Below, one piece after another: positions 1 through 53,697 of a DNA stretch of 64,000 nt. Position 1 is the stretch's first letter. The number at the start of each line of letters is the position of its first letter. The notes under the pieces were generated by a model that worked only from the letters and a program-made list of their open reading frames with translations, made no database searches and was not told where the DNA came from. Position numbers and translations under genes: made by a program. The stretch is taken from contig JBEKIG010000004.1 of assembly GCA_050011875.1 (NCBI GenBank), forward strand, positions 1 through 64,000, given 5' to 3'. The stretch is from Nitrososphaeria archaeon (lineage in GTDB: Archaea; Thermoproteota; Nitrososphaeria; JACIWG01).

Positions 1-1
1 G

Positions 2-274
2 AGTGAATACGAAGTCGCCAGATGATATCTGTGAAAAGCCGTTCGAGCTCCATACAAGGTAGAATTGGGCTCCGGAGAATATTACTGAATGGAAGTCAAG
101 TGTAATATTGGCTCCTGCTGCAAGATGTGTTGTCCCTACGATTAACGTGCCTAGTGGGGGGGGACCTGTTAAGACGTTTATATATCCAGACGATGCGAAT
201 GCATTAGGTAAGAATGGTGCTAATGGCATAGCGAGTAATAGCAATAGTACTATAGTTGACTTTAGTTTGTTCAT
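2..274 (-). CDS. Secreted/surface protein, 5' part only (runs off the window edge; missed by the ORF track)
   Basis: Manual translation from ATG 274: MNKLKSTIVLLLLLAMPLAPFLPNAFA-SSGYINVLTG..., a Sec signal peptide (K, hydrophobic core, AFA); frame open to the window edge. Confidence 0.75.
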   Translation of the reverse strand, partial: MNKLKSTIVLLLLLAMPLAPFLPNAFASSGYINVLTGPPPLGTLIVGTTHLAAGANITLDFHSVIFSGAQFYLVWSSNGFSQISSGDFVFT

Positions 275-380
275 TTATTTTTTACACCTTATTCGTGATG
301 TTTAAGGCCAATTTAGCCCTATTAAAGGTTTGTGGATGATTCATCTACTTGAAAACCAAGCTTTAGCAAAACGTGAGCTG

Positions 381-1571
381 GAAACCCCACACGCTTCAGG
401 GGTGGGATGAAAGCGAACCTGAATGTTTAAATAACCATAGTATAAATTAATAAAAGATGTTCAGAACCATAAAGGTGCGATTGGAAGGCGATATACAACC
501 ATTGTGTGCAAACAGCCAAGCTGTACACACAGGTCTGCCGGTCAGCACTTGACTATGGTTTCAAGAACAAGACGTTTAACAAGAACAAAATCAATACTGG
601 AACATATGGCTGACATCAGACAGAAAATACCCCAGCTACCTTCCGGGTTAGTTCAGACAGCCCGTGACCAAGCTTCAGACATGCTCAAACGGGAGAAATG
701 TATGGCGCATCCAACAAAGAAACGGTTACAGGTAAGGTACGACAGACGCACATTCAAGTTCTACCCTGAAAACGGATACGTATCCTTAAGCACTGCCTTA
801 GGTAGACTAATCTTCAAAACCACAATATACGAATACATCAAGCAATATCTGCAGGGTAAATACACGAATGCTCAACTAATCATAAGGAAGGGCAGGGCGT
901 TTCTCAATATCCAGTGCGAGTTGCCAGACATCCCGGTGAACACAGGAAATAGAGTTCTTGGTGTCGACAGAGGTATTCTGAACATCGTTACATGTGACGA
1001 CAATACATTCGCTAACTCTCGACACTTCAGAGCGGTAAAGGGGAGATATCAATACTTGAAAGCGAAACTCCAGAGTTTAGGCACTCCATCAGCTCAGTGT
1101 AAACTTGTACGGCTGTCTGGTAGAGAGAGACGGTTCACTCTGGATACAAACCACGTCATCGCAAAACAAATAGTTGAGAAACCATATGATGTACTAGCTT
1201 TAGAGGCACTCAGTATTTCTAAGCGTAAGGTACAGGGACGCAAATTCAACAGGAAACTCGGTGGATGGAGCTACGGACAACTTCTGAGTCTGCTCAAGTA
1301 TAAGGCAGAGAATCTTGGCAAGATAGTTGTTGAAGTAAACCCCAGACACACGTCACAGAGATGTAGCAAGTGCGGGTACATCGACAGGAATAACAGACAT
1401 GGTCTGGGCTTTCACTGCAGGCAATGTGGTTTCCAACTTGATGCAGATTTGAATGCTGCGAGAAACATCGCTCCACTCGGTAAATCTGAGTTGAGCAGGC
1501 CTGACGTCAACGAGCCAATCGTAACGCATACGGCAGTTACAAGCCCAAGGCTTCAGCCGTGGGTAGTTGAC
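381..1571 (+). mobile_element. IS200/IS605-family tnpB-only (IS1341-type) element
   Basis: Left-end hairpin CCCACacgcttcagggGTGGG (386-406); right-end hairpin CCCAAGGCTTCAGCCGTGGG followed by TAGTTGAC (1544-1571); tnpB between them; exact left boundary uncertain. Confidence 0.85.
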
Positions 1572-1574
1572 TAA
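457..1574 (+). pseudogene. tnpB: TnpB RNA-guided nuclease gene with two N-terminal frameshifts
   Basis: ATG457 MFRTIKVRLE..., shift near 505 to VQTAKLYTQ..., shift near 608 to ADIRQKIP...; RuvC motifs GVDRG, LEAL, DADLNAA and Zn finger CSKC/CRQC retained. Confidence 0.8.
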
Positions 1575-1820
1575 CTTTCCTAACTTTCCCTAAACAGGAC
1601 CCTTAAATTTCCTATATAAGAGCCCCTAATTTCCTATTAGGGTCCCTGATTTCCCTGTCCTAATTCCCTAATTTCCCTATTTTTTTCCTATTTCCCTATT
1701 TGATTCCCTAATTTCCTTAACCTTATGAAGTAGTTTCCTAAGGTTCCCTATCGTCCCCCTTATTTACAAGCTTTTCCCAGTTGAACCCCTTAAGATTCCT
1801 ATCTTCCTAAATGCTCTTAG
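1572..1820. repeat. Low-complexity (TTCCCTAAT)n-like tract plus a block conserved with 3905-4008
   Basis: Many ccctaa/ttccta units at about 9-bp spacing; 1747-1820 aligns ungapped with 3935-4008 (60/74 by hand). Confidence 0.75.
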
Positions 1821-1975
1821 GGTCCTTAACGATCCTGTTCTTTAAAGGGTCCTTAAGTTTTTAGCGAATGAAAGGGTATGGGGAAACAAAGAAATCCCAC
1901 ATGCTTCAGCGGTGGGATGGAAGCGAGCCTGTAATGCTTATATTACTAGCAGTATGTGAATAGCATACATATAAT

Positions 1976-2374
1976 ATGCCAAAGGGATACGACGCTTCGC
2001 AGACTTCAGTTCATTTCATGAACTACCACTTCGTGTGGTGTCCGAAATATCGCAGGCCAGTGCTGGTTGGCGAAGTGGAAACCAGACTTCGTGCGTTACT
2101 CGAACAGAAGTCCAAATCAATAGACTGCGAAATAATCACTTTAGAGACGATGCCAGACTACGTCCACATCTTCGTCAAAGCCAAACCTACTGCCACCCCG
2201 AACAGAATAGTGGCTGCCCTGAAGGGATTCACTTCCCACGAGTTACGAAAAGAGTTCCCACATCTTCGGTCAAGACTACCGACACTTTGGTCAAGAAGTT
2301 ACTTTGTCTCCACGCATGGGCACGTGTCTTCAGAAACCATCCAGAGATATATTGAGGGGCAGAAAGGGATTTGA
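1976..2374 (+). CDS. tnpA: IS200/IS605 Y1 transposase TnpA (HUH motif altered to YVH)
   Basis: YHFVWCPKYRR, MPDYVH, LWSRSYF and catalytic RYIEGQ motifs. Confidence 0.93.
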   Translation: MPKGYDASQTSVHFMNYHFVWCPKYRRPVLVGEVETRLRALLEQKSKSIDCEIITLETMPDYVHIFVKAKPTATPNRIVAALKGFTSHELRKEFPHLRSRLPTLWSRSYFVSTHGHVSSETIQRYIEGQKGI

Positions 2375-3519
2375 TTACCTACAAGTTCAGGCTCTATCCA
2401 ACGAAGACTCAGACCAGATTGATGATAGAGACTCTTGAGACTTGCAGGCTCCTCTACAATGACCTTCTGGATGACAGGATTCAAACCAAAGCCAAGGCGT
2501 TCGAACAGAAGAGGGCCCTTACGGCGATCCGCCGTAGTAGCAAGTTCTTGATGGAAGTTCACTCCCAAATCCTGCAAGACGTCGTCTTCAGATTAGACAA
2601 AGCGTATGAGGCGTTCTATTCAGGGCTTTCAAGATACCCCAAGTTCAAACGAAAAGACAGGTACAACTCGTTCAGGTATCCTCAACTTGGTGGGTTCAAG
2701 GTTGTAGATGGGAAACTCAGGCTTTCAAAGATAGGTCTCGTCAAAGCGAAAATGCATCGACAGATTGAAGGAACGCCGAAGACTTGCATTGTCGTCAGAG
2801 ATATCGACCAGTGGTATGCCTGTATCTCAGTTGAGACAGAATCTCCCAAACCGATTGAACCACAGAAAGGGAAACCAGTCGGAGTAGACCTTGGGGTAGT
2901 GAATCTCGCAACTCTGAGTAACGGTAGAGTCTTCGAGAATCCACGACATCTCGACAACTCCATCACTAGAATCACGTCACTTCAGAGGCGCCTATCAAGA
3001 AAGAAAAAAGGCTCTGGTAACAGGGAAAAGGCCAAGGTCTTGCTCGCCAAGGCTTGGAGAAAGGTGAGGAACCAGCGTTTGGATGTCGCACACAAAGTCT
3101 CTGCTAATCTGACATCTGAATACTCGACCGTCATATTCGAAGACCTGAAGATTCCGAACATGGTGAAGAACCACAATCTGGCATCGGCAATAATGGATGC
3201 CTCTTGGGGCCAACTGCGCCGACTAACTGTCTACAAGGTAGAAAGGCGTGGCGGACGGGTCAGACTTGTCAACCCAAGCGGGACATCGCAGAAATGCTCT
3301 GGATGCGGAGTAGCGGTTCCGAAAGGACTGGAAGAACGGACGCACTCGTGCCCGAACTGCAGTCTCGTCCTCGACAGGGACGTGAATGCGGCACGCAATA
3401 TTCTGGCTGCGGGTCTGGAACAGGCCCGTGTGGAGGAACTGCCTCTACTTGTCCAACGCAGGCGGATAAGCAAGTTTGTTCCTGTGAAGCAAGAAGCCTA
3501 CGAGTTTACTCGTAGGTAG
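2371..3519 (+). CDS. tnpB: TnpB RNA-guided endonuclease, apparently intact
   Basis: YKFRLYP N-terminus; RuvC GVDLG, FEDL, DRDVNAA; Zn finger CSGC..CPNC. Confidence 0.95.
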   Translation: MITYKFRLYPTKTQTRLMIETLETCRLLYNDLLDDRIQTKAKAFEQKRALTAIRRSSKFLMEVHSQILQDVVFRLDKAYEAFYSGLSRYPKFKRKDRYNSFRYPQLGGFKVVDGKLRLSKIGLVKAKMHRQIEGTPKTCIVVRDIDQWYACISVETESPKPIEPQKGKPVGVDLGVVNLATLSNGRVFENPRHLDNSITRITSLQRRLSRKKKGSGNREKAKVLLAKAWRKVRNQRLDVAHKVSANLTSEYSTVIFEDLKIPNMVKNHNLASAIMDASWGQLRRLTVYKVERRGGRVRLVNPSGTSQKCSGCGVAVPKGLEERTHSCPNCSLVLDRDVNAARNILAAGLEQARVEELPLLVQRRRISKFVPVKQEAYEFTRR

Positions 3520-3544
3520 TTCACGACACGATTTCAAATCTAGA
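3340..3544 (+). ncRNA. Predicted TnpB omegaRNA (scaffold overlapping the tnpB 3' end/right end; guide = flank 3525-3544)
   Basis: Inferred from established TnpB biology; right-end hairpin and TCAC end are visible; the 5' boundary is a guess. Confidence 0.5.
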
Positions 3545-3754
3545 TGCCACGGACAAACCATATTTGCCAAATATCCAACCTATTTTTATGCAGTTAAATT
3601 TACGATGGGACACCGATATGAATTATATATGAAATCGTTCAGGGATATGGTGACATCAGATTTACTTGCTTAATTAAGTGGACACCGCATACTTTTCACT
3701 ATTTCTCCAACAAGACAACTCTGTAAAAAAATCTCACCTATCCTAAACTTTATT

Positions 3755-4008
3755 AAAATACTTAAAATTAAGTCTACTTAAAATACTTAGGCTACTTAAA
3801 TTTAAGTAAATACTTAAAATACTTAAATGGCTTAAATCTGAATGTTTAAATTAACTTAAAACTACTTAAATTTTACTTAATTTCTTATCTGCATACTTAT
3901 TTTATTAACCGCATGAAGCGAACCTTAAGACTTGCTTATCTTCACCCTTATTTACCAGCTGTCCCCAATTAAACTTCTTAAGCTTCCTATCTTCTTAAAT
4001 GTTCTTAA
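3755..4008. repeat. AT-rich (TACTTAAAA)n-like tract plus a block conserved with 1717-1820
   Basis: About 10 tacttaaa-like units in 3759-3900, followed by the shared block. Confidence 0.75.
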
Positions 4009-4339
4009 ATTGGCTTGGCCTGCTTCTAAAATTTTAACTAGCGTATTCTTTCAAAAATATAAAAAAGAGTCTAAAGAAGAAAAGAATATAAATGAAGAAG
4101 AATACGGAGAAAATGTAAGGAAAGATATTCTTAGATGTTTTTCGAAACCTTTCATGTTCTAGCTAAGTACTCTAACAGAATAAACCTTTTTTGATAATGT
4201 CCGGCATGCAATTTCCTATGGTTAAAGCCTGACATTACATTCTTGGACTATTTGAGCGCAGTTTCCATATTTGATATACTGTTTCATCGGCTGTTAGACT
4301 TTCACTCTTACCTATTGCTTCAAAGCTTTTGAGTTTAAC

Positions 4340-4546
4340 CTAGATAAACCATACGTTATCATGAGTTTCCTCAATAGCGTAAAAAACTGGGACATTTATT
4401 TCGTTTTCTATAATTCTTGTTTGTGCGGAATACTTTACAGTACCCTGTTCGGTATGCACTCTGCCAATACGTTTAACATCAAAAGATCCAATTGGAGAAA
4501 CGGAGTCAGGCCACAACTTGAGAAAGTGTTCTCCTACTAGTGTCAT
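4340..4546 (-). CDS. Small hypothetical protein or gene remnant
   Basis: 68-aa ORF downstream of 4672-5646, preceded by a 40-codon ORF overlapping by ATGA; no recognisable motif. Confidence 0.3.
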   Translation of the reverse strand: MTLVGEHFLKLWPDSVSPIGSFDVKRIGRVHTEQGTVKYSAQTRIIENEINVPVFYAIEETHDNVWFI

Positions 4547-4671
4547 GTGGATTGCAATTTGCTGTGAATGCTACTTTTAGCCAATCCACCGATGTGGGCC
4601 TCTCCGCTTATCGAGGTTTGTTTATGTTCTAGACATAGACTGTTACGCTCTTTTACTTCAACCATAGGTTG

Positions 4672-5646
4672 TCAAATTATAGAGCGTAGCATCCATTCAG
4701 CTTTTAACTTAACCGTTCCATCTTCGCTTTTCGCCTTCTCTCTAAACGAGTTCAGCAGTTCAATTTTCTCACTTTCAGGTAACATGTCAAATATTTGAAT
4801 ACGTAGCTCCTGAAGTAATGCGTTCGCTATTGGACCTTTGTAGGGGTTTGTGAACCCAGATCCAACCGCTGGAGACTCGTAGGCTAACTCTGTAGTGGGG
4901 CTAAAAAGTTTATCCACAAATACTCTCGTAAGTTCACTCGTCTTAGGAGGACAAAGCCTTGCAATATTTCCCAGCATCCTAATAGCCCATTCCTGTACCT
5001 CTAAATTTTCATCATATAGCAACTTTTCTAAGTTAGGGGTAAGAGATAGAGCCCAGTCTTTTGTTTTCTCTTCAGAAAGAAGCCTTGGCATCGAAACTAG
5101 CAAAATCCTTTTTTTCTCGCCAAGAAAGTCTCCTACAGGAGGTTTTTCAACAATCGATTTAAAGGCGGACTTCAGCTTTCCACTTTTCTCAAGGATTTGA
5201 ACTGGATCTTCATCGAAAAGGGGGAAGAGTTTTTGTACCAGGGAATTTCTGAGTCCTTCCTCAAGCCCCTTATCTTCTACAAGATCCCAGAGTTGTTCAA
5301 CCTTCCATAAAATCTTTCCAACATCGACTTTTTGTTTTTCACTTCCTTCAATCAATTTTGTCAGATAAAGTGCATATACACTTTGTCCGAGGTCCGTCAG
5401 CTTAACAAATGGTATTTTATGTCCTCCTCTTGGGTTTTTTTCGTGCCTTATCGATATTATTTTTAAATTCTCTAACTCGTGAAGAGCTTTTGAAATATTC
5501 TGTGCATTTAGTGATGTTACTTTTACTAAATCCTTCGAGCTAAATTCTTTATTAGGGTAGAGTGCGTTGACAATTTCACATCCGCTTGCAAGTTTCCGAA
5601 GCCAGTCAGCAAAGTCGCTACTGTTGGCAACTTGATTTTGATTCAT
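4672..5646 (-). CDS. Winged-HTH protein with a helical (HEAT/ARM-like) C-terminal domain
   Basis: SSKDLVKVTSLNAQNISKALHELENLKII...VKLTDLG wHTH; LEKLLYDENLEVQEWAIRMLGNIA HEAT-like repeat. Confidence 0.7.
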   Translation of the reverse strand: MNQNQVANSSDFADWLRKLASGCEIVNALYPNKEFSSKDLVKVTSLNAQNISKALHELENLKIISIRHEKNPRGGHKIPFVKLTDLGQSVYALYLTKLIEGSEKQKVDVGKILWKVEQLWDLVEDKGLEEGLRNSLVQKLFPLFDEDPVQILEKSGKLKSAFKSIVEKPPVGDFLGEKKRILLVSMPRLLSEEKTKDWALSLTPNLEKLLYDENLEVQEWAIRMLGNIARLCPPKTSELTRVFVDKLFSPTTELAYESPAVGSGFTNPYKGPIANALLQELRIQIFDMLPESEKIELLNSFREKAKSEDGTVKLKAEWMLRSII

Positions 5647-5715
5647 ATTATCAAATTCTCCGATGATGCAAGTTATAGAAACATAAATATTTAAGTATTG
5701 TGATCTATTTTAATA

Positions 5716-5787
5716 ATGTCAAATGTGATATTACCTAAAATGGATGAAATGCACAATAAGATAAATGAGCTAAGTGATAAGATATGA
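5716..5787 (+). CDS. 23-aa leader peptide resembling the N-terminus of the next gene
   Basis: MSNVILPKMDEMHNKINELSDKI*; ATG about 26 nt after TTTAAGTA (5690); stop overlaps ATG 5784 (ATGA). Confidence 0.4.
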   Translation: MSNVILPKMDEMHNKINELSDKI

Positions 5788-6299
5788 GCAATGATGAAAT
5801 AAACGAAATAGACGCTCGGATAAATGAGCTGTCAAGCACGGAAAAAGACAAGAATAAGGTTGCTCTCATGTTAAAGGATGAGGGATACCCGCCACGGGAC
5901 ATAATGGGAAAGCTTCACGTAAGCGGGCACATATTTGGAAAAGCAAGAGGAAAGGAGCAGAAGAAGGAGAAGGTGCCCCTAACCCTTCAAACGAACGCGG
6001 ATAAGATTGTGTTAGACGCATCAGCATTGGCGACGTTGGAAGACCTTAAAAAGTGGGCACAAGAAAACACGCATCTAACGCTCAAAGAGGTTTTAATAAT
6101 AGGCAAAGGGATGGTTGAAATGGATGTAAAAAGGATGGCAGCAGATCAAGGGCTACCCCTCTGGGATTTCATACAGAAAGCGATTAACTTTCATAACTCT
6201 TGGTACGATTCAGTGGTTAAACTGATAAAGTTAGGGGTCCTAACGTTTGACGGGCGACTTAACACCTACACTCTAAATGTTCAAGAGGTAAGAGAGTAA
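5784..6299 (+). CDS. Hypothetical protein, possible N-terminal HTH
   Basis: 171-aa ORF; LKDEGYPPRDIMGKLHVS HTH-like segment; coupled to the next gene. Confidence 0.7.
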   Translation: MSNDEINEIDARINELSSTEKDKNKVALMLKDEGYPPRDIMGKLHVSGHIFGKARGKEQKKEKVPLTLQTNADKIVLDASALATLEDLKKWAQENTHLTLKEVLIIGKGMVEMDVKRMAADQGLPLWDFIQKAINFHNSWYDSVVKLIKLGVLTFDGRLNTYTLNVQEVRE

Positions 6300-6300
6300 A

Positions 6301-7221
6301 TTGAGCCAGGTAAACGACGAGGAAATGACACTTATCAGGAACATAAGGCGAAGGGGAATAAGCCCAATTGACGTAGCAGATAAACTGCAGTCTGTCACAA
6401 AATCCGAAAAAAAGGAAAACGGGAAAAAGGCAGACGTAGAAGAAGACGACGACGAAATACTTAATATGGTCAGCAAAATCCAGAAGCAGGCCATGAAACT
6501 TAAGCTCCAGATGCAGATTTTCGATAACATGGGGATCACCGGAGGGGGAGACAGGTCCCAGAAAAACGTAAACGTTAAAGAGGAAATAAGGGACGACATA
6601 AAAGAATATCTCAGCGAAAATGGAGAGAAAGGCGAGAAATTAAGCACGTCGGAGATGATGAACATGATCATAATGCTGAAAGCGCTTGGCGAAAAGGGTA
6701 CGGACTGGAAGGAGATTTCTGCAATAGTCACATTACTAAAAGGCCAAGAAGGTAAGAAAGAGGAGGAAATGAGCACAATGGACATTATCACTAAGTTGCA
6801 GGAAAGGGAGGAGAAAGTGCGAGCAGATGAAAGAAGTGTAGCTGAGAAGTATGCAATTCAGCAGCCTCAGAGTCTAGGAGACTCCTTAGAAGATATAATC
6901 GGCGCAGAGGGTGCAGCAGCTCTAAAGGAGAAAGTGTCGGCCACAATAAAGGACGCTTTTAACCCAGACAGGCAGCTAACCGACGCTAAAGGAAAACTAG
7001 ACCCTTTAGCAGTAGCGGACCGGTTCGTTAAACAGATACCGGACATTCTGAAGGCAGTAAGGTCCCAGATACCGCCGAAGGAAACAGAGCAGTTCGAAGC
7101 AGTTCCTGAGACAGAGACAGAGACGGCGACGGCAGGCCAGCAGGGGCAGCCAGTGGAGGAAGCAGTGCAGACAGTTGTGGCAGAAGATCAACCTTTGCCG
7201 ATTACAAGCTCAGGAATGTGA
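6301..7221 (+). CDS. Hypothetical charged/helical protein (mobile-element-like orphan)
   Basis: 306-aa ORF, E/K-rich coiled segments, purine-rich coding strand. Confidence 0.75.
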   Translation: MSQVNDEEMTLIRNIRRRGISPIDVADKLQSVTKSEKKENGKKADVEEDDDEILNMVSKIQKQAMKLKLQMQIFDNMGITGGGDRSQKNVNVKEEIRDDIKEYLSENGEKGEKLSTSEMMNMIIMLKALGEKGTDWKEISAIVTLLKGQEGKKEEEMSTMDIITKLQEREEKVRADERSVAEKYAIQQPQSLGDSLEDIIGAEGAAALKEKVSATIKDAFNPDRQLTDAKGKLDPLAVADRFVKQIPDILKAVRSQIPPKETEQFEAVPETETETATAGQQGQPVEEAVQTVVAEDQPLPITSSGM

Positions 7222-7355
7222 AAGAATTTTAATAGCCTTAATTAAGCCATTGAGTTCAACAGGCTCATTGATCGGACCAGCTAGATCTTTGTGTTTGTCA
7301 AAGACGATTTCAAGTTTCTCTCTCATTTGAATCAACACCTTTAATGGAATCCTTA

Positions 7356-9170
7356 TCAATCTTGAAAGTCTTGTTTAACTGCATCCAGCATAGTTTTGAT
7401 TAAGACTACTGCTTCAGAAACATCTTCTGTAGTAACCTTGTCTCTAAGGAGAAGTCTAGCCCGTGCAATGGCAAGCCTTATCATTGAATAAAGTATATTA
7501 GGAGAAATAATCGTGCTTTGGTCTTCCTTTTGTAAACACATTTCGAGATAAGAATCACTGAGCATTTTTTCCACTTCAGGTGTTAAGATTGGATTAAAAA
7601 GTCTGCAATATAGTAGATATTTCCTTAGAAATTCTGTATCTAAAGCTGATTCAATCGGCGTCGGATGATATATTGTTATGATATGTGATGCGATTCTATC
7701 AGCTTCTTCTTTGCTAGACTCTTTTTTTGGGATAAAAATCAGGTCGAATTCATTCAAAAATGCCTGAGGAAGGTTAACATTTTCATAAAGACTTTTTTGA
7801 GAATCATATTCAAAAAACTTAAGCTTTGCTGTTGCCAGAATTGAAGTTCGAGCATTTACCTTCATTAAAAAGCCATTCTCTGAGATCGCAACTGCTTGCT
7901 GTTCAATTGCCCCAAAAGCTTGGAGAGCACCTTTTTTCATATCATCAACTCCGTCTAATAAGTAAAGTCCATGGTCTGCTGAGATAAGTAGTCCAGCTTC
8001 TGCCATTCGTAACTGTTTGTTTTCTTTGTTCTCTTGTACAATTCTGTAAGTAAGGTCTGACTCCTCAGTTGTTTTTCCATAAGCATATAACGCAAGAGGA
8101 GCTAATCTCGCAGTATACTTTAAGAGCTCACTCTTTGGAGGGTCTCCTATCAAAAGAATGTTTATACCATTTCTTAAGGTCACATTGTCTGAACGTTCTA
8201 TCTCTGGTATTCCTGCAATAAGCAGTAATATGGCTTCTTTTAGAAGATCGTAATTGTAAATTGATGGCGCAAAGGATTTGATAAGCGTCTTGATCCAATC
8301 TGGACGTGCTGCCAGTTCATTGAAGTTTATTACATCAGCTTTTTCTATTACAACATCTTGAGGTATTTTTCTCAAGACTTCGATATAATTGCTTTCAATT
8401 GCCGAACCAAAAGACCTTGATTGACTGCCTCTTACGCCAAATTCTTCTTCCATCCTAAAAATTCCATTGATAATAACCCTGTCGCCAAGTTTTGCAGCAG
8501 CAACACTATCACCGTATATTTTTGCATCTAATCGTCTGGGAAGTTGGCCTGGAGGAAGTTCTTCAGGAAGTTCTTGCGCACGTAAGATTTGATAATTTAT
8601 GAATGTGCTTTTCAATTCATCAAGTTTGAAATTTTCCTCTTCATCACATTCTATGCACCTCACAGGCTTCTTCAACATACGTTCTTTCTGAACAACCACT
8701 GTTGTGTGTCCATTTGGACAGACCCATGAAGCTTCAATTATGTACGGTTTTATTTCTGAAACGCTAGAAACGTTTCCATTGATAGACACAAGCTTTCCAA
8801 GGAAACTTACATCGAGCTTTCTAATAGGAACCTTTTCTGGGAGATTCCCCAAGCGTACAACAAAATATTTCTCAACTTTCTTAGCGTAATCAGAATCCTC
8901 TTGCCTCAGAAATTCCACTGCAGCTTTCAAGAAAATGTCCAAATATTTTGTTGGATTATTAGTCAATTCAATGGCGAGATTAGGGTCAAACTTAAGGATG
9001 TCTTGAAAGTCTACAACAATAGAATTTGTATTTGTTTGGATGGCATTGACAAGTCTAGCCATATATTTGGGCTGATTAGATGCGTCCAAAAATACTTTAA
9101 AAAAGTCTAAAAATTTATCCTTTACAGCAGAATCTGAAAGCAAGTCCACGATTGTCTTCCCCTTTAACAT
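7356..9170 (-). CDS. mcm: MCM helicase paralog, predicted ATPase-dead, lacking the C-terminal WH domain
   Basis: MCM N-domain, Zn finger, QELPEELPPGQLPR, INILLIGDP, FDLIF; Walker A/B, arginine finger and sensor 2 all degenerate. Confidence 0.9.
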   Translation of the reverse strand: MLKGKTIVDLLSDSAVKDKFLDFFKVFLDASNQPKYMARLVNAIQTNTNSIVVDFQDILKFDPNLAIELTNNPTKYLDIFLKAAVEFLRQEDSDYAKKVEKYFVVRLGNLPEKVPIRKLDVSFLGKLVSINGNVSSVSEIKPYIIEASWVCPNGHTTVVVQKERMLKKPVRCIECDEEENFKLDELKSTFINYQILRAQELPEELPPGQLPRRLDAKIYGDSVAAAKLGDRVIINGIFRMEEEFGVRGSQSRSFGSAIESNYIEVLRKIPQDVVIEKADVINFNELAARPDWIKTLIKSFAPSIYNYDLLKEAILLLIAGIPEIERSDNVTLRNGINILLIGDPPKSELLKYTARLAPLALYAYGKTTEESDLTYRIVQENKENKQLRMAEAGLLISADHGLYLLDGVDDMKKGALQAFGAIEQQAVAISENGFLMKVNARTSILATAKLKFFEYDSQKSLYENVNLPQAFLNEFDLIFIPKKESSKEEADRIASHIITIYHPTPIESALDTEFLRKYLLYCRLFNPILTPEVEKMLSDSYLEMCLQKEDQSTIISPNILYSMIRLAIARARLLLRDKVTTEDVSEAVVLIKTMLDAVKQDFQD

Positions 9171-9379
9171 TCCACAGTATTACTTGATATTTAATATTTA
9201 AGAGGGGATTACGTAATAGGAAAAATAATTGTTAAGTTTAGACTTACCAAAATTAAGCTCTATAATAGTAGATTAGTTTCTGTATTCGTCTAAACCTCTT
9301 TTGTATCCCGCTGGTGTTTTGTTTTCATTGAATTTGGTTATTCTTTCCCCTACTTTAAGCTGTTCGGGATTTGAAAGTT

Positions 9380-9580
9380 TCAGCATCTTAAGCAATGTAA
9401 TACAGTCGAAGTTAGCACATGCATAGGCCATGTTGTTAAACAGCGCAGAATTATCGTTAACAAATTAGAGAAGCCAATAGTCTCAGAAAAAGCGAAACCA
9501 AGTCCGACACTCGCACCTATTATAGGCTCTTTCTTCTCTTTATTTTTTTGAGAGAAAAATTCCTTTTTAGTCATCATCAT
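9380..9580 (-). pseudogene. Fragment of a PrsW-family intramembrane metalloprotease
   Basis: GASVGLGFAFSET and LRCLTTWPMH match PrsW motifs 2 and 3; the N-terminal EE motif and most TM helices are missing. Confidence 0.5.
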
Positions 9581-9658
9581 AATGTGATGAACCAGCCTTA
9601 CTTGTTCGATAAAAAATTAACTCCCGTTTTATTCCACCAAATAATTTAGCTGGAGGAA

Positions 9659-9937
9659 TCATTTTCCTTCTTTTAAAACTATTTTTACAAGTTCTATCAA
9701 GTGTTTGACAGCCTCCTCTCCTTTAAGTGTCAGCGAGTAAGTGGTTTGGATTGGATGCGTGTCGATTATCGTCCTCTTTACAACCCCTTTTCTTAACAGT
9801 TCTCTTAAAGCCCAATCCAAAGTCGCTCTACTGTCAACCGAATTTTTCAACTTAGAATATCTCGCCTCTCTCCCCCTATTTAAGTACAATAAGATTTTGA
9901 CTTCGGACGAGTTAAGAAATTTTTCCCATATGTCCAA
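9659..9937 (-). CDS. HxlR-family winged-helix regulator
   Basis: ARYSKLK...LRELLRKGVVKRTIIDTHPIQTTYSLTLKG. Confidence 0.85.
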   Translation of the reverse strand: MDIWEKFLNSSEVKILLYLNRGREARYSKLKNSVDSRATLDWALRELLRKGVVKRTIIDTHPIQTTYSLTLKGEEAVKHLIELVKIVLKEGK

Positions 9938-10001
9938 ACCCCTTCAAAACGTCATACGGAGTATGACAAATAAACACCTACCATAAATTTAATAACTATT
10001 T

Positions 10002-10235
10002 ATGTTTGCATTTAAAATTTATCCAAAGAGCGTCAATAATCAGGTTCGTTCCGAAGATAAAATAAAAGAAAAATTTTTTGAAGAAAACGGTATCATAGAT
10101 CTTGACAAGTACAGGCCAGATGGCTTCAAAAACCAAATATGGTATGAAATAAAGATAGGTTCAGAGATGCCCCTTGAGAAGGATTGGGGGAGGGGAAGGT
10201 ATTCCAAACGAACTGGACAGAGAAGAGCTGGTTAG
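10002..10235 (+). pseudogene. Possible PD-(D/E)xK nuclease fragment
   Basis: YRPDGF...WYEIK motif in a short ORF with a nonsense-like tail. Confidence 0.35.
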
Positions 10236-10303
10236 ATTTCTTTTTTGGTTTTTTTAAACCGTTTTGTTTATATTTTACCCTTTATTATAGTAAAGCGGTT
10301 AAT

Positions 10304-10762
10304 ATGAAAAGGTTAGATGAGCTTGATTTAAAAATTTTGGATGAATTAAATGAGAATGCCGGATCATCTATCCCCAAGCTTTCCAAGAAGCTTGGAGTGA
10401 AGCAGTCCAAGGTGTACAGCAGGGTGAAGAGGCTTATGAGGAAAGGTGTCATACAGCGGATGACGATAGAAGTGAACGATGAGAGCCTAGGTTTCAACGT
10501 GAAAGCCTTCGTTGGAATTAACGTCGAGTCATTGGAAAGAGATAAGGCCGTTGAAGAAATCGCAAAGATACCAGAGGTCATTCTCGTCTCCGAGGTCACC
10601 GGAAGGTTTGATATGCTAATTGAGGTGCACGTTAGAAGCCTAGAAGACCTGTACAGCGTTGTGTCAAAGAAGATAGCCATTTTGCCAGGTGTCAGTCACA
10701 CCGAGACCTTTATCCAGCTTAAAAAAAGGAGCACTCTAAGGAAATTCACCATGATCAAATAG
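10304..10762 (+). CDS. Lrp/AsnC family transcriptional regulator
   Basis: LDELDLKILDEL HTH, EVTGRFD and TETFI; start moved to ATG 10304. Confidence 0.93.
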   Translation: MKRLDELDLKILDELNENAGSSIPKLSKKLGVKQSKVYSRVKRLMRKGVIQRMTIEVNDESLGFNVKAFVGINVESLERDKAVEEIAKIPEVILVSEVTGRFDMLIEVHVRSLEDLYSVVSKKIAILPGVSHTETFIQLKKRSTLRKFTMIK

Positions 10763-10875
10763 TAACATTAAAGATCATTGAGGGTTCGATGGGATAATAA
10801 AGGAAATTAGGGAACTCACGACATCTTTTATATAATTTTATAGACGTGTCCTCTTATAGTGCTTGATGGAAAGGA

Positions 10876-11559
10876 ATGAATAGGCTGTTCAGGTTCGAGG
10901 ACCCTAAGATAAGGGAATTGTTTGACGGCAGATTTCTTAAATCCATTTACAAAAGGGTTGAAGTCCTCGACTCCTGCGTCAAAGAAGTCGAAGTATGCGC
11001 CAACTTAAAGTATCCAGATTATTATATCGAGCCTATTCTTCCAATATATACGGGAAGCTCTAGCGGAATAGCTGTTTACTATGCTAGAACCCTTCCCTAT
11101 TCGACCCCTTCAGGCTTAGATATTGTCATCCAGTTGACCGCAGCGTTAATAAGCTATGGCTCAAAGAGTTCTCTTAAAACTGTTCTAGCCCACGAATTCC
11201 TCCATTACCTCGACTTGGTCAGAAGAATGTCGAAATTCGAAATCTTATCAGATGAAATCAGTGCAAGCACATTCGAAGCGATGTATTCTGACCTCGAGAG
11301 AACTGTTAAACCGGAGTACGTTTACTCTGATAAAAACCTTATTAGAAGTATAAAGAAAAAATTTGTCGACGGTTTCGAAGACAAAAGTTTGAAGGAGAAG
11401 ACCTTAGACCGCTGGATAAATAAACGAAAACCGGTTGTAGAACTTCCTCCAGAGGAGAACGTAGTTAGAATACCTGTTAACATGGTACTAACCGTCAAGT
11501 TTGATCCGATACTGCTTTTAAGAATCCGTGATTTAGAGAAGAAATCCGGTTTAGTGTGA
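10876..11559 (+). CDS. Hypothetical protein with an HEXXH zincin motif
   Basis: VLAHEFLHY; overlaps the next gene (GTGA). Confidence 0.75.
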   Translation: MNRLFRFEDPKIRELFDGRFLKSIYKRVEVLDSCVKEVEVCANLKYPDYYIEPILPIYTGSSSGIAVYYARTLPYSTPSGLDIVIQLTAALISYGSKSSLKTVLAHEFLHYLDLVRRMSKFEILSDEISASTFEAMYSDLERTVKPEYVYSDKNLIRSIKKKFVDGFEDKSLKEKTLDRWINKRKPVVELPPEENVVRIPVNMVLTVKFDPILLLRIRDLEKKSGLV

Positions 11560-13205
11560 ATTACATGAGCACTTCGAGCACCGTTAAAAAAGAAATTCTA
11601 GGAACCCTTTATAGAAAGTATGGAGAGGAGAACGTGCTTGCTTCATGCATCTATGGATCATTTGCAGCAGGATACGCAAGAGCGGACAGCGACTACGATA
11701 TAATAGTTGTGCTCAAAAAATACATGCCTAAGATAGGATACAAGTATGTTAAGGAACCATTAGTATGCTCGATCCTCGCAATAGAGGAGCAGATGATTCT
11801 TGAAGACGCCAAAAAGTCCGGCCTAGGGGAATTCGTGGCAGGAAGGCTTCTTAACATATACGAGCCCCTTGTAGGAGAAGACCTTTTAAGAGAAATAGAA
11901 GTAGAATACAAGAAAAGGACGTTAATAGAAATCTTGATGGAATTCAACGGCAAATATCAACCTATAGTCGGAACAATCAAATTCCCTCTCGAATATTTTC
12001 TCTTTGAGAAGCTAAAAAGGAGAGCTCTCTTCTATCCCCCAGCTCTTTACAGTTACTCCAGAACATACAATGAACCTAATCGAAAAAGGAACCTTGAATT
12101 CACTTTATCCGGGTTCAGAGAAGCCGCCGTGGAAATTGCTAGCGAAAATAATAGCGTGCGCTTTAACGAAGACAGACTTTGGATAACTGATGTTAAAACA
12201 TTTAGCAAGATTGGGAAGCTGAAAGCCGTGGCCGAAGAAACTAGACGGGACATCACATCATATGCTACACATCTCTATGCGGGAAGGGTGGGGGTAAACA
12301 TAATACTTGACGAGCTCAAATCCAAGATTAAAAGACAGATGAAGCTTGAGCCCTTAGAAGATCTTAAACATACATCTAAGTACTTGGAGCTACCAGAAGG
12401 AAGCCTTATAGTCAACGAAAAACACTGGATGGCTAAGATAGCAGAATATTTAGGTATTCCAGAAGGTTACAACTGCAGATCACAAAATTTAGGTGGTGAC
12501 GAGCTGCACAAAATATTTAACGTAGCAAGAAAGTTGGTGTTCGATAAGGATGGGGAGACATATGAAGTCATCGTTAAAAAGTTCAAGGAATCACGAAACA
12601 TAAAATGGGCGATTCTAGCGCTGGTTACACTAACGGATGGGCGCTTTGAATTTGTACCTTTGAAGAGACTAGCGAATGAGTATCTTATGAATTTAGCTTT
12701 CCGGGAAGCAGGCTTTAACACACCCAAAGTTTACTTCTTAGATCTTGACAGAGTACAACTTATCACAGAATACATCGAAGGAGAAAATTTTGGCAGCGTT
12801 CTCCAAAAAGAAGAAGGGGTGAAGGTTATGAAACAGGTTGGTGAAGAAATCGGTAAAATACACGAGAAAGGATTTACTCTCGGCGACGCTAAACCGGATA
12901 ACATAATATGCACAAAGCAGGGTCTGTTCATAACAGACCTTGAGCAGGCCAAAATTGGCGGCGACAGGACATGGGATATCGCAGAATTCCTAAACTTCGC
13001 CCTATCGTTCTCATTTGACAGAGAAAAAGCGAAGGCTATGGCATGCTCCTTCGCTAGAGGCTACATCAAATTTGGCGATGGTAAAATTCTTGAGAAGATT
13101 AAGGAACGAAAATATAACTTAATCTTTAGGTCTATGGTTGCACCGAACGTTTCCAAAATGATAGATTCTGGAATTGAAGAAGTAGTAAGGGAATTTAAGC
13201 TTTAA
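11556..13205 (+). CDS. Pol-beta-type nucleotidyltransferase fused to an atypical (Bud32/RIO/Kdo-like) kinase
   Basis: [18 protein letters not shown] (GS..DxD); kinase [28 protein letters not shown]. Confidence 0.85.
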
Positions 13206-13374
13206 ACTTGGTGTACCCACATCTTCCACATGTGAACCTATCGTTATGCTCAGCCAAGAAAACACCGTGTCCACATTTTGGACAATCTGTTCTCCTAAAC
13301 GTGATCTTACCCTCCTCAACCTTGTAGAGCTTCCAGACACCGTTTGAATGCTTGTCTGAACTCTTTTTGCTCAC
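13195..13374 (-). CDS. rps27ae: 30S ribosomal protein S27ae (missed by the ORF track)
   Basis: GTG start; ...[39 protein letters not shown]; follows rps24e. Confidence 0.95.
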
Positions 13375-13376
13375 GG

Positions 13377-13736
13377 TTACTTACCTCCCTTTGCTGCAGC
13401 CTGTTTCTTTTCAGCCTTCTTGCTAGAACGTTCTTTGTTGATCTTGTCACGTTCTTCTTTGCTTAGCATTCGCACAAAAAAATGTTTTGGAAGCTGTTTC
13501 CTTGCATCATCCAGATTTTTATAGATAAAAGCGTGAATGACTGCGTCACGATTTCCAGATGAAGTCTGAATATTAACAGGAAATACGAGCTTTTCTTCGA
13601 CACCAAACTCTTTTGCTAGCATTTCAGAAGCTTTTTTCCTGCTCAGCGTTGAAGCTGCATGCTTAACTACTGCTGATACTTCAGTGCGTCCCAGAAGAAG
13701 GTTTTCAATTTTGCTGATTGATCCTAGTTCAGACAT
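13377..13736 (-). CDS. rps24e: 30S ribosomal protein S24e
   Basis: [10 protein letters not shown]; conserved position; start moved to ATG 13736. Confidence 0.88.
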
Positions 13737-13782
13737 AATCGTCTGACATGAGGGTCGTAACAGGAGGTAAATTAAGCTTTTT

Positions 13783-14301
13783 TTATGGCGTGTCAAGCTT
13801 GATCATTGAGTCAAAGATTTCCTGGCAATATGATTTAATGCTGTTTTCGACTTTGACCAAGACTAGGCCTTCCTGAGGCTGACCATAGAATAAGCAAGAA
13901 TTCACAGGGGACAGTATTATGGCTATAAGAGCTAAAAGGTCTTCCTCACCATCAACAATTAAACGAACAGGCTTTGTTGAAGAAAGAGCTTTAGTGAATG
14001 CGCTGATACTTTCCTGAGAGATCGTTCCACGGGGATTCTTCACATTTAATGTAGTCAAGTGGGCGGTTTTAGGAAGCGCGCGTGGAACCCTTCTTTCCCT
14101 TGAGTCGACGATCTGAATATCAGGCGTTACGTTTATTGATAAAAGAAAGTCTAAAGTAGCGTCTCCGACAGAAACGATAAGCCCACACTCTGGAAGATTT
14201 AACTCAACTTCTGAAGCCTTATCTTCATCGTTGTGTATAAGTCTACCTAAGGGTGCCTTTAGTTTCTTAGAAATTTCTTCTGTTAGGAGCCAAATGAGCA
14301 C
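13783..14301 (-). CDS. DUF359 GTP-dependent dephospho-CoA kinase
   Basis: LKAPLG, VGDAT, NPRGTI, VDGEEDL, YGQP. Confidence 0.92.
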   Translation of the reverse strand: MLIWLLTEEISKKLKAPLGRLIHNDEDKASEVELNLPECGLIVSVGDATLDFLLSINVTPDIQIVDSRERRVPRALPKTAHLTTLNVKNPRGTISQESISAFTKALSSTKPVRLIVDGEEDLLALIAIILSPVNSCLFYGQPQEGLVLVKVENSIKSYCQEIFDSMIKLDTP

Positions 14302-49170: not shown

Positions 49171-50019
49171 ATGAAGTTTAAGTATTTAGTCCCTTACATC
49201 GTTATTACCGTATTCATATCTCAATTCGGTAAGGATTCGCTCAACTACTCATCGCCATTTTTCATGATGGGATTGAGATACTTGATAGCGGGCTCATTGT
49301 TGCTATTAATTTCGAGACGTTTTCTGTTTAATAGGGATTTAATAATTCTGTCGTTGCTTTCGGCAACAAGTACTGTCCTGTGGGCATACGGACTCGAATA
49401 CGTATCTTTTTCAGATTCAACCGTACTAAGTTACACAATGCCACTAATAACGATCTTCACCTCATGGGCACTGTTAAAGGAAAAAGGGACGCTCACCGAA
49501 GTAATAGGTGCCGTGATAGGTTTTTCAGGACTCGTAATCTTCTCAATACCTCTACTGACAGGTTTCCTTCTATTAGGTTCTCTACTAACCCTCGTTAACG
49601 CAGTTTTCTGGTCACTTTATTCAGTGTATTTCAGAAAAATGAAGGAAAGCAACCCAATCTCAGTCGTAGGCTCCCAGTTCATTCTGGGTTCGCTCTTCAT
49701 GCTGGTCCTTTCTCCAATTAATTTCAAGCTCAGTTTTACAAACGGATTCGTCATCGACCTACTTTACCTTTCAATCATAGGAGGAGCTATACAGTTCCTC
49801 TTATGGAACCTGATGATAAGAGGAGAAAAAATAAACATAGTCACGACTTCGGTTTTCGCAGTTCCAGCTCTCACTGTGATTGTACAAGCCTTGGAAACAC
49901 TAACGATCCCATCTGCACTGTCCATAATTGGTATTGCAATAATGTTCATAGGCATATATATTTCCCAGAGTGTAAACAAACCAAAAATCCCCAACAAGGG
50001 ATTGGCGTCGCAATCCTAG
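49171..50019 (+). CDS. DMT/EamA family transporter
   Basis: About 10 TM helices in two repeats; LRYLIAG, LLKEK. Confidence 0.92.
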   Translation: MKFKYLVPYIVITVFISQFGKDSLNYSSPFFMMGLRYLIAGSLLLLISRRFLFNRDLIILSLLSATSTVLWAYGLEYVSFSDSTVLSYTMPLITIFTSWALLKEKGTLTEVIGAVIGFSGLVIFSIPLLTGFLLLGSLLTLVNAVFWSLYSVYFRKMKESNPISVVGSQFILGSLFMLVLSPINFKLSFTNGFVIDLLYLSIIGGAIQFLLWNLMIRGEKINIVTTSVFAVPALTVIVQALETLTIPSALSIIGIAIMFIGIYISQSVNKPKIPNKGLASQS

Positions 50020-50334
50020 TTGGTTTGACGATGTCATCAAACTGAATGCCATAACAAAGAAACTTTCGCCAAAAAGAAAACTAGTTGTCGCAGTACTCTT
50101 AAATGATGAGGAAAATAAACTAATTCTTAGCAGGATAAGGGAAACAGAAAAGTAAGGAACGGAATCGTAATAGTAACTTTACATAATCGTACTCATCTGT
50201 AATAAGGCGATTTTAGACCTGCATAGAGTCGCAAGAATAGAAGCCAAACAAGGATTTGAATGATATTTGAATGATATCCACAGTTTCCTCATACTGTGAG
50301 GTGGCCATAAAGGACAATAAAAGATCGTTTCATT

Positions 50335-51513: not shown

Positions 51514-51523
51514 TCCAATTCAC

Positions 51524-52078
51524 CTACGTCAGCAATATACCCTCTATCGCTTTCATCCTTGCTTCCCACTTTTGCTTGAAGTCCACAATGGCAGCGTTGA
51601 CTTTCGACAGCCCGGTTTGGATCGAAGCAGGAGCTGAGGTGTCGTAAACGAGACTTGATGGAGAGGTAATCGCTAGGAGCTGCACCGCTGAACTTACAAA
51701 GTTGTAATCGTAATCATAAAGTTTGTTGAGCCTATCCTCGTTGATGCTTATCGTAGCAACGAAGCCGGAGTAGCCCTGCTGGGCGTGTCTCACCTCACCG
51801 CTCAGTTGCTGAACCTGCGAGATCAACGAACCAACCGATGTCAGATTCGTATAATCACCAGCAGTAACCATTTGCTTCCTCACATCCTCTAGGTTTCCCT
51901 TCGTTTGGTTGAGCTTGTCCGCTACCTGGTTGCGCAGGAGGTTGTCAGAGACGCGAAGATCCTCTAACGTCCTGTAGCCTTTGAGCCCTGGAACCAGTAG
52001 TTCAAGCTTCTTCTGAGGACCCCTACTTTCCTCAACCTGTTCTCTTATGTCTGGATTATCTTGTGACAATTTGATCAT
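51524..52078 (-). CDS. Helical/coiled-coil protein co-transcribed with the SPFH gene
   Basis: PGLKGY...DNLLR, GYSGF, LYDYD; 10-bp gap to the SPFH gene. Confidence 0.75.
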   Translation of the reverse strand: MIKLSQDNPDIREQVEESRGPQKKLELLVPGLKGYRTLEDLRVSDNLLRNQVADKLNQTKGNLEDVRKQMVTAGDYTNLTSVGSLISQVQQLSGEVRHAQQGYSGFVATISINEDRLNKLYDYDYNFVSSAVQLLAITSPSSLVYDTSAPASIQTGLSKVNAAIVDFKQKWEARMKAIEGILLT

Positions 52079-52341
52079 CTATAAACCTATTTCGAAAGTT
52101 TCAAAAGCTATAGCCTAGTATAAATATCTTTTGCTCATCCCCTTATAGTTATGCATTTGCATAGAAAATCTACCGATCAGTCCTACTCATGCCTTACCGC
52201 CAGCTCTGTTCAGTATCATAATAGCTTAGTGGGGTGGATGTCTTTGCTTGGCTCAGAAGATGCCAGAGAGCACTATCCTGATGCTAAGATCATCCTGCGG
52301 ATGCTAAAACCGGACAGGCAGTAGGAAGGAGAGCTACCTCG

Positions 52342-53406: not shown

Positions 53407-53697
53407 GAGTTGCTGATACTGCTTTGCAAAGGCCTCAATTCCCTGTGCGATTGAATCAGGAGACGGTGATTGGTGGCGTCTTCTAGATATCATCGCTGGA
53501 GTCCTTCGTCGGACAGGCTGTAGCGCAGTCAGCTTGAAAGGGAACTCAGTACAGCCTGATTTGCAACGCCATCAGCGATCTTGGTGTAACGTAACGGTTT
53601 GCTGGACGGTCAATAACGGTGGTGTTTCGGGTTACTATTGCTCCCCCGTGCACAATAGATGATAACATATCACGGCGCTCAACGAAAGGATTAGCGC

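Follow-up and report, generated by a model that had tools for sequence, protein, structure and literature searches.

An MCM paralog with a degenerate ATPase core in a strain-specific island of a Nitrososphaeria archaeon

Archaeal MCM is a model for the eukaryotic replicative helicase, and the extra MCM copies borne by mobile elements are usually assumed to be working helicases. A stretch of 64,000 nucleotides from a Nitrososphaeria archaeon (contig JBEKIG010000004.1 of assembly GCA_050011875.1; hereafter the window) carries an MCM paralog that raises a different question: what keeps an MCM reading frame open when the ATPase it encodes appears to be dead? The gene, P0001, occupies 7356..9170 on the reverse strand, as do all its features given below, and lies within a strain-specific island. 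An earlier reading of the sequence, here called the original prediction, took it for an inactivated MCM whose catalytic sites had been lost in a targeted way under selection for a non-catalytic role, for instance as a subunit that would poison, load or regulate MCM hexamers. We lean slightly towards a related view, namely that it is a catalytically dead MCM long kept by selection, probably a non-enzymatic subunit, in a ring or bound to a partner, derived from a mobile element and eroding at its 3' end. Since the residues that burn ATP are all lost, yet the frame is open and foldable, the protein probably acts by binding and not by catalysis.

Degenerate catalytic motifs on an MCM fold

The paralog is an open reading frame (ORF) of 604 codons. 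A GTG at residue 8 is an alternative start and gives the 597-aa form present in the protein database. An A/T-rich box, TTAAATATTAAATAT, lies 17-31 nt upstream of the ATG and would suit an archaeal promoter of a leaderless mRNA, which is no proof of expression. Four Pfam domains, all above cut-off, follow one another: MCM_N (residues 17-104, 65.7 bits), MCM_OB (116-240, 94.9 bits), the MCM P-loop domain (282-500, 174.7 bits, E = 2e-51) and MCM_lid (513-594, 64.8 bits). The best relatives of solved structure are the Sulfolobus MCM chains 4fdg and 3f9v (E = 2.8e-95 over residues 17-602). The canonical MCM that the original prediction proposed to look for elsewhere in the genome (119 contigs, 2.64 Mb, 97% completeness; the public runs containing this DNA are peat metagenomes) is present. 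It is the one other MCM gene there, on contig 15, and its 680-aa product, 54% identical to the paralog and hereafter called the host MCM, has all motifs and the C-terminal winged-helix (WH) domain intact.

The motifs of the paralog were judged by alignment to the Sulfolobus protein SsoMCM, to the host MCM and to 52 canonical members of the class. In Walker A (GDPPKS, residues 342-347, 8130..8147) the canonical GDPGTAKS has become GDP--PKS, two residues short and with Ala changed to Pro; Lys and Ser are retained. In Walker B (LLDGVDDM, residues 404-411, 7938..7961) IDEFDKM has become LDGVDDM; the catalytic Glu is now Gly, which turns the acidic pair D-E into D-G, and the first Asp is retained. 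The arginine-finger motif is LNEFD where the canonical form is LTRFD (R474E, 7743..7757), and the sensor 2 motif is SPNIL in place of TPRQL (R558N, 7491..7505). The degeneracy of these four motifs, claimed in the original prediction, holds against all three references, and two more changes can be added to its list. In the PS1 hairpin region (ISENGFL, 7869..7889) VAKGG has become ISENG, and the class-invariant Lys, which corresponds to Sso K430 as counted in the SsoMCM alignment, is now Glu (K431E). The Lys of the PS1 beta-hairpin has a role in DNA translocation by MCM. In the sensor 1 region (ATAKL, 7821..7838) AANP has become TAKL, the invariant Asn being replaced by Lys (N449K) and the Pro by Leu.

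Because all residues of the sites acting in cis, Walker A and B and sensor 1, and in trans, the arginine finger and sensor 2, are replaced, the paralog is not a normal ATPase, and to judge from the alignments it is almost certainly a dead one. It is extremely improbable that it remains an active ATPase or helicase through unconventional residues. Walker A still has its Lys-Ser and Walker B its first Asp, but the P-loop is two residues short, and the Walker B Glu, sensor 1 Asn, arginine finger, sensor 2 Arg and PS1 Lys have all been replaced, three of them by charge reversal or gain. According to a review of the studied MCMs, mutating nearly any residue of the AAA+ active site, one at a time, abolishes ATPase activity (PMC4619765).

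The N-terminal tier (residues 1-265, 8376..9170; Pfam MCM_N and MCM_OB), with its helical subdomain A, Zn motif and OB fold, is well kept, in agreement with the original prediction. The Zn motif C151-x3-H155 ... C172-x2-C175 (8646..8720) reads C-P-N-G-H...C-I-E-C and equals the class consensus; the host MCM has CQKCGH at the first of these sites. Loss of a Cys relative to the host, which this difference might suggest, is ruled out by the class consensus C-P-N-G-H. The OB-fold loop QELPEELPPGQLPR (residues 199-212, 8535..8576) is the same as that of the host MCM at 14 of 14 positions. At the other end the protein stops where the canonical lid stops, and no WH domain is found in the ORF.

The losses extend well beyond the ATPase motifs. 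Among 118 columns invariant in 28 canonical MCMs of the class, 45 are altered in the paralog, including 37 of the 81 in the AAA core and 3 of the 20 in the N-terminal half. These invariant AAA-core columns are altered at roughly the rate seen in the remainder of the domain; by this count, the loss in the AAA core is wholesale and not targeted, and the targeted loss at all catalytic sites that had been proposed does not stand.

Other extra MCM-domain genes of the class look quite different. PF00493 is present in 393 of 401 class genomes, a tally that includes six unpublished ones, which contributed to this count and to no other result. We examined 16 non-core MCM-domain genes from ten of the class genomes, picked for their extra PF00493 matches, and excluded from the comparison eleven copies with canonical scores, among them a second full-score copy in genome G299. 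The Walker A Lys and the sensor 1 Asn are kept in all 16, a [DN]E Walker B in 14, the arginine finger in 15 of the 15 that could be aligned there and the sensor 2 Arg in 13 of 15. A recognisable OB loop occurs in just two of the 16, the near-canonical L095 and L100. The paralog, which combines a dead ATPase with a canonical OB loop, shows the reverse of this pattern. Two genes of the class, L088 (in G299) and L099 (in G169), have weak PF00493 matches (68 bits), a Walker B with 'DG' and no sensor 2 Arg. The Lys of Walker A, the Asn of sensor 1 and an Arg in the finger position are still present in both, and the two may belong to another AAA+ family or be further degenerate relatives of MCM.

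An AlphaFold2 model of the paralog has a mean pLDDT of 71, with values below 50 over residues 365-392 and 410-460. A control model of the host MCM, made from an alignment of like kind, has low values at 350-450 too, so they are not specific to the paralog.

Probable selection on the open frame and decay of its 3' end

Would a frame of this length stay open by chance? We simulated neutral evolution by random point mutation of the mcm of genus g3 (locus L004, the sister gene in the trees described below), using a kappa of 3.18 and the third-position composition of the paralog, until the observed amino-acid identity was reached. The 604 codons are free of stops, as the original prediction reported, and at this amino-acid divergence none of 1000 neutral runs was (mean 14.7 stops for the whole gene). 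Taken by part, 3 of 1000 runs were stop-free in the N-terminal domain (NTD), 4 in the AAA core and 54 in the lid. Of the hydrophobic-core columns of the AAA domain, 56 of 61 are still hydrophobic, against 48.7 +/- 2.8 expected, and 56 was reached in 6 of 1000 runs. Replacements in the gene as a whole, as in its NTD and in its AAA core, are more conservative than under neutrality; those in the lid are not.

Estimates of dN/dS (omega) add to this for the AAA core. When residues 266-500 are fitted separately, the paralog has an omega of 0.14 on a long branch, and both omega = 1 (2dlnL 12.8) and omega = 0.5 (7.1) are rejected; the background omega in the same fit is 0.019, also far from the paralog's value. 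By this measure the dead AAA core shows purifying selection. The original prediction had set neutral decay, with stops and a dN/dS near 1 in orthologues, against its own proposal; the core instead rejects omega = 1 and keeps its hydrophobic interior, and the ORF contains neither stops nor frameshifts. For the lid, fitted separately, omega is 0.42 and the profile is flat. Counted pairwise by Nei-Gojobori, dN/dS has reached saturation in most pairs. A partitioned model whose parts share their branch lengths (NTD 0.33, AAA plus lid 0.97; equal omegas rejected at 49.5 and both equal to 1 at 50.4) was not used, as it is mis-specified: synonymous divergence varies along the gene, and separate fits reverse the picture. 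These patterns suggest that the paralog has very probably been selected as a protein over a long time.

The 3' end tells of decay. Searching the window by tblastn with canonical C-termini revealed what is left of the WH region. A remnant of the lid-to-WH linker, NKTFKIDKDSIKGVDSNERE, is found by frame-by-frame reading in frame +1 at 7316..7375; the first frameshift lies just upstream of it, near residue 598, where the ancestral path departs from the frame of the ORF. Frame +2 then carries the first half of the WH domain at 7231..7323, just past the stop of the paralog. This remnant agrees with the sister MCM at 26 of 31 amino acids and 78 of 93 nucleotides (20 of 31 and 61 of 93 for the host), and its nucleotide identity is 84% to the sister and at most 66% to other genera. 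It stops about 35 codons early, where the convergent gene 6301-7221 ends. The WH domain is thus missing from the ORF, as had been noted, but not from the DNA, in which a frameshifted and truncated remnant persists at 7231-7375; the frameshifts and the truncation indicate a loss by decay and not by clean design. The paralog is now eroding at its 3' end. Relative to the sister, all four indels within the 1812-nt ORF are in frame (-2 in Walker A, +3 after Walker A, -1 after Walker B and -2 in the lid) and both indels in the 135-nt remnant shift the frame; random placement would put both of these within the final 135 of 1947 nt with a probability of 0.005.

The search for orthologues returned the paralog itself. 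In a set of 5.8 billion proteins, the sole match above 59% identity is the paralog, and the next are 680-aa canonical MCMs at 53-58%; where the relatives hit carry names, these are Nitrososphaeria/Thaumarchaeota. Among 41 genomes (its own and 40 relatives), a second full-length MCM gene occurs in this genome alone, and where another genome matches twice, the pieces come from intein-split genes or from contig ends. Exhaustive searching by HMMER with the AAA and lid part finds the paralog, then an intein-bearing MCM at 51% and all else at 44% or less. The canonical mcm genes of several relatives (G004, G005, G010 and G035; P0010, P0041 and P0092) are interrupted by inteins, with frames of 1060-1800 aa in which Pfam recognises LAGLIDADG or intein families; no intein interrupts the host mcm of this genome.

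A number of results weigh against a protein kept by selection, and some of them would suit a relic in decay. Such a relic would have ceased to function, perhaps when it reached its present host, and its unexpressed or useless ORF would still be open by chance; we regard this as possible, though unlikely. Two frameshifts and one truncation are packed into about 135 nt of the 3' remnant, and together with a PrsW gene fragment and insertion sequence (IS) elements in the island they indicate that the neighbourhood is decaying. The GC content of the paralog is low (0.37 against 0.43 in the host MCM). With one branch length for the whole gene, omega is 0.62 on the paralog branch and 0.026 in the background; equality with the background is rejected (2dlnL 81), but omega = 1 is not (0.94). 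Fitted separately, the NTD (residues 1-265) has an omega at the upper bound, with values of 0.3 or less rejected (10.6), 0.5 giving 5.8 and 1.0 giving 2.55 (not significant), which implies that the recent evolution of the N-terminal half has been near neutral or adaptive. The omega of 0.14 for the AAA core is a rough figure because dS on its branch is saturated, and all the codon models are our own implementation (GY-type, F3x4, on a fixed tree of nine family genes, without site classes). The genomes and protein sets searched contain no orthologue by which to gauge recent constraint directly, and it is awkward that an old core lineage should have no second member among the sequences sampled. 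Among the public sequencing runs listed as carrying island DNA there is no RNA run. The break in the WH region may also be very recent (we estimate at most about 0.1 neutral substitutions per site, possibly far less), and an open frame would then not be improbable.

Against decay stand the neutral simulations without a single stop-free run, the rejection of omega = 1 in the AAA core, the preserved hydrophobic core, and the division of the indels into in-frame ones in the ORF and frame-shifting ones in the remnant. The sequence is also identical in public runs of three studies, two of them possibly the source of the assembly, which speaks for persistence and not for function. Assessed as a pseudogene, the paralog has 604 codons without stops or frameshifts and a frameshifted former 3' end, and it rejects omega = 1 in the AAA core but not in the whole gene or the NTD. 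We hold with moderate confidence that it is still functional today. Present-day function is less sure than past selection because the WH region was recently broken and other gene debris lies in the island.

A probable mosaic ancestry

Where did the paralog come from? Protein trees place it within the canonical MCM clade of its own family (support 100), as sister to the MCM of genus g3 (90/88), with a terminal branch of 0.81-0.91 against 0.11-0.12 for that sister. A clade of the paralog and the MCM of the host genus is rejected (approximately unbiased test, p=0.007), which means that the paralog is not a recent in-genome duplicate of the host mcm, and duplication from the host's own MCM was discarded as its origin.

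The relationship to the sister changes along the gene. Identity between paralog and sister (identity between sister and host in brackets) is 73% (56%) in subdomain A, residues 1-105, 67% (73%) in the Zn/OB part, residues 106-265, 49% (87%) in the AAA core and 52% (75%) in the lid. Where both genes encode the same amino acid, their four-fold sites disagree in 23 of 66 cases for the NTD and in 29 of 46 for the AAA core (p=0.004); between canonical genes of different genera the proportion is 0.58-0.69 everywhere, which is saturation. Over all codons for the same amino acid the differences are 59 of 180 in the NTD and 59 of 106 in the AAA core (p=0.0002). A two-breakpoint scan marks out a tract of recent shared ancestry with the g3 canonical MCM at residues ~45-208 (8547..9038), with synonymous differences at 29 of 125 inside and 117 of 224 outside (chi-square 27.8, reached by none of 200 permutations on a coarser grid). 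Genus-specific states, defined as those that set the sister apart from two other genera sharing one state, give a similar division: counts of the paralog with and without the sister's state are 14:5 in residues 41-240 and 2:9 in 281-480 (p=0.007), and for genus-specific nucleotides in the same ranges the ratios are 48:24 and 20:22 (p=0.05). In an NTD-only tree the paralog and the sister group together (90), the paralog on a branch of 0.38. In a quick tree of the AAA and lid part it stays inside the family (98), its placement there not being resolved, with a branch of 1.58.

Residues ~45-208 are likely a tract of gene conversion or recombination. As we read these patterns, the gene is probably a mosaic, in which an old non-catalytic core had residues ~45-208 and the C-terminal WH region either replaced by those of the canonical mcm of a former host from a related genus or exchanged with them. 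The element would have moved to its present host after this exchange with a g3-type host mcm.

The alternative is a single recent origin without recombination, by which the whole gene came from the MCM of a related genus and its AAA core then evolved explosively, through positive selection or local hypermutation. We consider this rather doubtful. It would agree with the position of the whole protein beside the g3 MCM, with the AAA and lid part still falling inside the same family, and with the fact that no other member of an old lineage is known. It leaves unexplained, however, why synonymous sites are saturated in the AAA core and not in the NTD, why the core is without the genus-specific states of the sister, and why its identity to the sister (49%) does not exceed that to the host MCM (51%). 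It would also require, by our estimate, an omega of ~2-3 across the whole domain.

The island and a possible role for the paralog

The strain-specific island that holds the paralog is 9.8 kb long (364..10199) and is defined by a break of synteny with a genome of the same genus, G001. The flanks are ~94% identical to G001, homology ends at 363 and restarts at 10200, and between the same flanks G001 has 538 unrelated bases. Public contigs match the island without a single difference, X1 over 1059-9686 and X2 over 151-9686, at depths close to those of the flanks (8.9 against 8.2 in X1 and 42.2 against 41.4 in X2), so it is not a misassembly; these two are possibly the source of the assembly and are not independent. 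A run from a third study contains identical pieces, including 7202-7446.

The left part of the island is occupied by elements of the IS200/IS605 type (504..3519), a stretch that has a 93% identical copy at another place in G001. It consists of a solitary TnpB-like gene (504-1574, forward strand) and an IS200/IS605 pair of TnpA (1976-2374, forward) and TnpB (2371-3519, forward). The pair is bracketed by a 76-nt direct repeat, 82% identical, at 1744-1819 and 3932-4007. Pieces like it occur in G001 (C12, 86%), metagenome contigs show extra depth and variants at 3957-3976, and the repeat may be a small repeated MITE-like element. Seven copies of TACTTAAAW are clustered within 113 bp at 3759..3871 (forward strand), beside the IS200/IS605 element at its right end; the window in full contains 11, where 2.4 would be expected. 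Isolated copies occur at 5689-5697, where two island genes have their divergent promoter region, and at 9878-9886. These repeats may form an iteron or operator array.

Three genes without relatives follow at 4672..7221, encoding a 324-aa winged helix-turn-helix (HTH) protein on the reverse strand and, on the forward strand, a 171-aa protein and a 306-aa acidic protein, the last two without a family. These cargo proteins were found in one of the 41 genomes, namely this one. Viral contigs contained no relatives of the paralog or of the two cargo proteins searched. For two neighbour proteins the Atlas gave HTH leads below 0.85 and nothing more; PHROGs offered nothing beyond HTH for the neighbours of the paralog in the island, and Rfam had no match in 1-14000. 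On the other side of the paralog, a fragment of a PrsW-family membrane protease gene encodes 66 aa at 9380..9580 (reverse strand; Pfam E 8.6e-4, below cut-off), and the full 185-aa gene is present on contig 19 of G001 (Pfam E 1.3e-12). Across the gene region of an HxlR-type regulator (9601-10142), contig depth in two runs is about threefold that of the adjacent sequence; there are two sequence variants at 9756-9905, and a 21-nt insertion follows 9994 in some contigs. The extra depth and the variants indicate that the right island edge is common to other strains or copies, and the true right boundary may be near 9650 rather than at 10200.

The island was compared with the features that define cryptic integrated elements (PMC6563490). 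It has a strain-specific insertion, orphan genes, HTH proteins and a replication-type gene, and it lacks the integrase and the att direct repeats: no integrase family was seen among the island ORFs scanned, no tRNA lies inside the island and no direct repeat flanks it at 363 and 10200. The island probably derives from a mobile element. Elsewhere in the window, 11556-13205 (forward strand) encodes a 549-aa protein with an N-terminal nucleotidyltransferase domain of the Pol-beta type and a weak protein-kinase-like match, which is conserved in G001; the GC content rises to 0.49-0.50 at 42001-44000 and 50001-54000 against ~0.42 elsewhere; and a 95-nt tRNA-Ser lies at 42460-42554.

What could a protein of this kind do? 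Of the original proposal of selection for a non-catalytic role, the selection survives, in the form of a dead AAA core under purifying selection; the targeted catalytic loss does not, and the WH domain went by decay. Returning to a binding protein kept by selection, its canonical N-terminal tier, with Zn motif, OB fold and conserved loop, would allow it to form MCM-type rings and to hold DNA; in MCM the N-terminal tier is described as binding DNA more strongly than the C-terminal one (PMC4619765). The single most likely mode, which we put forward only tentatively, is that it enters rings together with the host MCM. A predicted complex of paralog residues 107-604 with host MCM residues 100-597 lends this weak support, with a score of 0.43 where the best of three controls reaches 0.00; solved MCM rings exist, and the score may reflect likeness to them. 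The mark set for such complexes is reached by 116 of 157 solved complexes and by 2 of 215 mismatches, and at scores of 0.60 or less by 18 of the 157 and by both mismatches. The runs agree in at least 92% of contacts, and the partners have pLDDT values of at least 73. In a mixed ring each copy of the paralog would silence two ATP sites, its own and that of the neighbour needing its arginine finger. The MCM WH domain is reported to contact origin-bound Orc1-1 (PMC12141716), and a subunit without this domain would give Orc1 no grip. Helicase loading or activity would be damped or redirected, to the benefit of the element.

A bolder form of this idea is that the element, one of ammonia-oxidising-type archaea, carries a long-lived dead mimic of the host helicase, its ring-forming N-terminal tier and Orc1-contacting WH domain matched to each host by gene conversion with that host's mcm, which acts as a dominant-negative or hijacking subunit of the MCM hexamer. 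On the sequence patterns at hand we judge this improbable; if true, it would amount to replication interference at the level of the helicase, which has not yet been described in archaea. The paralog could instead be a selected protein that stands alone, as a homo-oligomeric DNA-binding ring or scaffold, for example at the iteron-like array at 3759-3871 with its HTH neighbours, serving maintenance, copy control or regulation. The retained DNA-binding tier, the array itself and the several HTH proteins adjoining the paralog are in keeping with this, as is the identity of 52-61% between its NTD and that of the present host, perhaps too low for mixed rings. Binding of the paralog at the repeats is conjecture, however, and the apparent exchange of NTD and WH region with the MCM of a former host is easier to explain if matching the host helicase matters. 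A role of this sort seems to us equally improbable.

MCM relatives that have lost their enzyme activity are known from other lineages. Among eukaryotes, MCMDC2 and the mei-MCM proteins REC, MEI-217 and MEI-218 have degenerate ATPase motifs and serve as binding or regulatory subunits. The paralog is like them in joining such motifs to an MCM fold, but they come from another domain of life, have independent origins and are stably inherited by vertical descent, whereas the paralog is an island copy in a single genome. In Methanopyrus kandleri, MCM2 coexists with a working MCM. This protein (PDB 3F8T) has been called a catalytically inactive MCM homolog (PMC3972481) and is drawn with subdomains A, B and C and an AAA+ domain (PMC4619765). 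Judged by these descriptions, both are full-length archaeal MCM homologues that kept the fold and not the enzyme activity. Unlike MCM2, which belongs to another phylum, the paralog falls inside the canonical clade of its own family, sits in a strain-specific island, looks mosaic and has a broken WH region.

Haloarchaeal 'outlier' MCM proteins, described as 312-315 aa long and consisting of the N-terminal domain only (PMC3972481), are likewise extra MCM-derived proteins that retain the N-terminal tier and cannot be helicases. They have no AAA+ domain, whereas the paralog retains a dead AAA+ and lid module of 340 residues that shows purifying selection in our fits. MCM genes have been reported on the thaumarchaeal cryptic integrated elements NitGar-E6, NitEve-E3 and ThaMY3-E2 (PMC6563490), and 'shell' MCM copies on archaeal mobile elements (PMC3914693). 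The paralog resembles the thaumarchaeal ones as an extra host-derived copy of the same class, in foreign DNA and beside winged-HTH genes; it differs in that they are presented there as replication helicases, while it appears dead and its island yielded neither integrase nor att site. The multiple MCMs of Methanococcales co-purify, and mobile-element MCMs have been proposed to form heterocomplexes with the cellular MCM (PMC3984812). Mixed rings of acquired and cellular MCM are the idea in common, for the paralog a predicted one; as far as that account goes (PMC3984812), loss of activity, which sets the paralog apart, is not described for the Methanococcales proteins. Our literature search found no paper on an inactive MCM in Thaumarchaeota or Nitrososphaeria.

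Non-catalytic MCM homologues are therefore not new as such; what stands out here is that a dead AAA+ core shows purifying selection, that parts of the gene seem to have been exchanged with a host mcm and that the WH region is eroding. The weight of the case is limited by a single known genome and a decaying 3' end. If confirmed, the paralog would be a natural doping subunit with which to ask how many dead sites an MCM ring tolerates, and a candidate for the control of host replication by an element. It would also be an example of how non-catalytic MCM relatives, such as the meiosis proteins of eukaryotes, arise.

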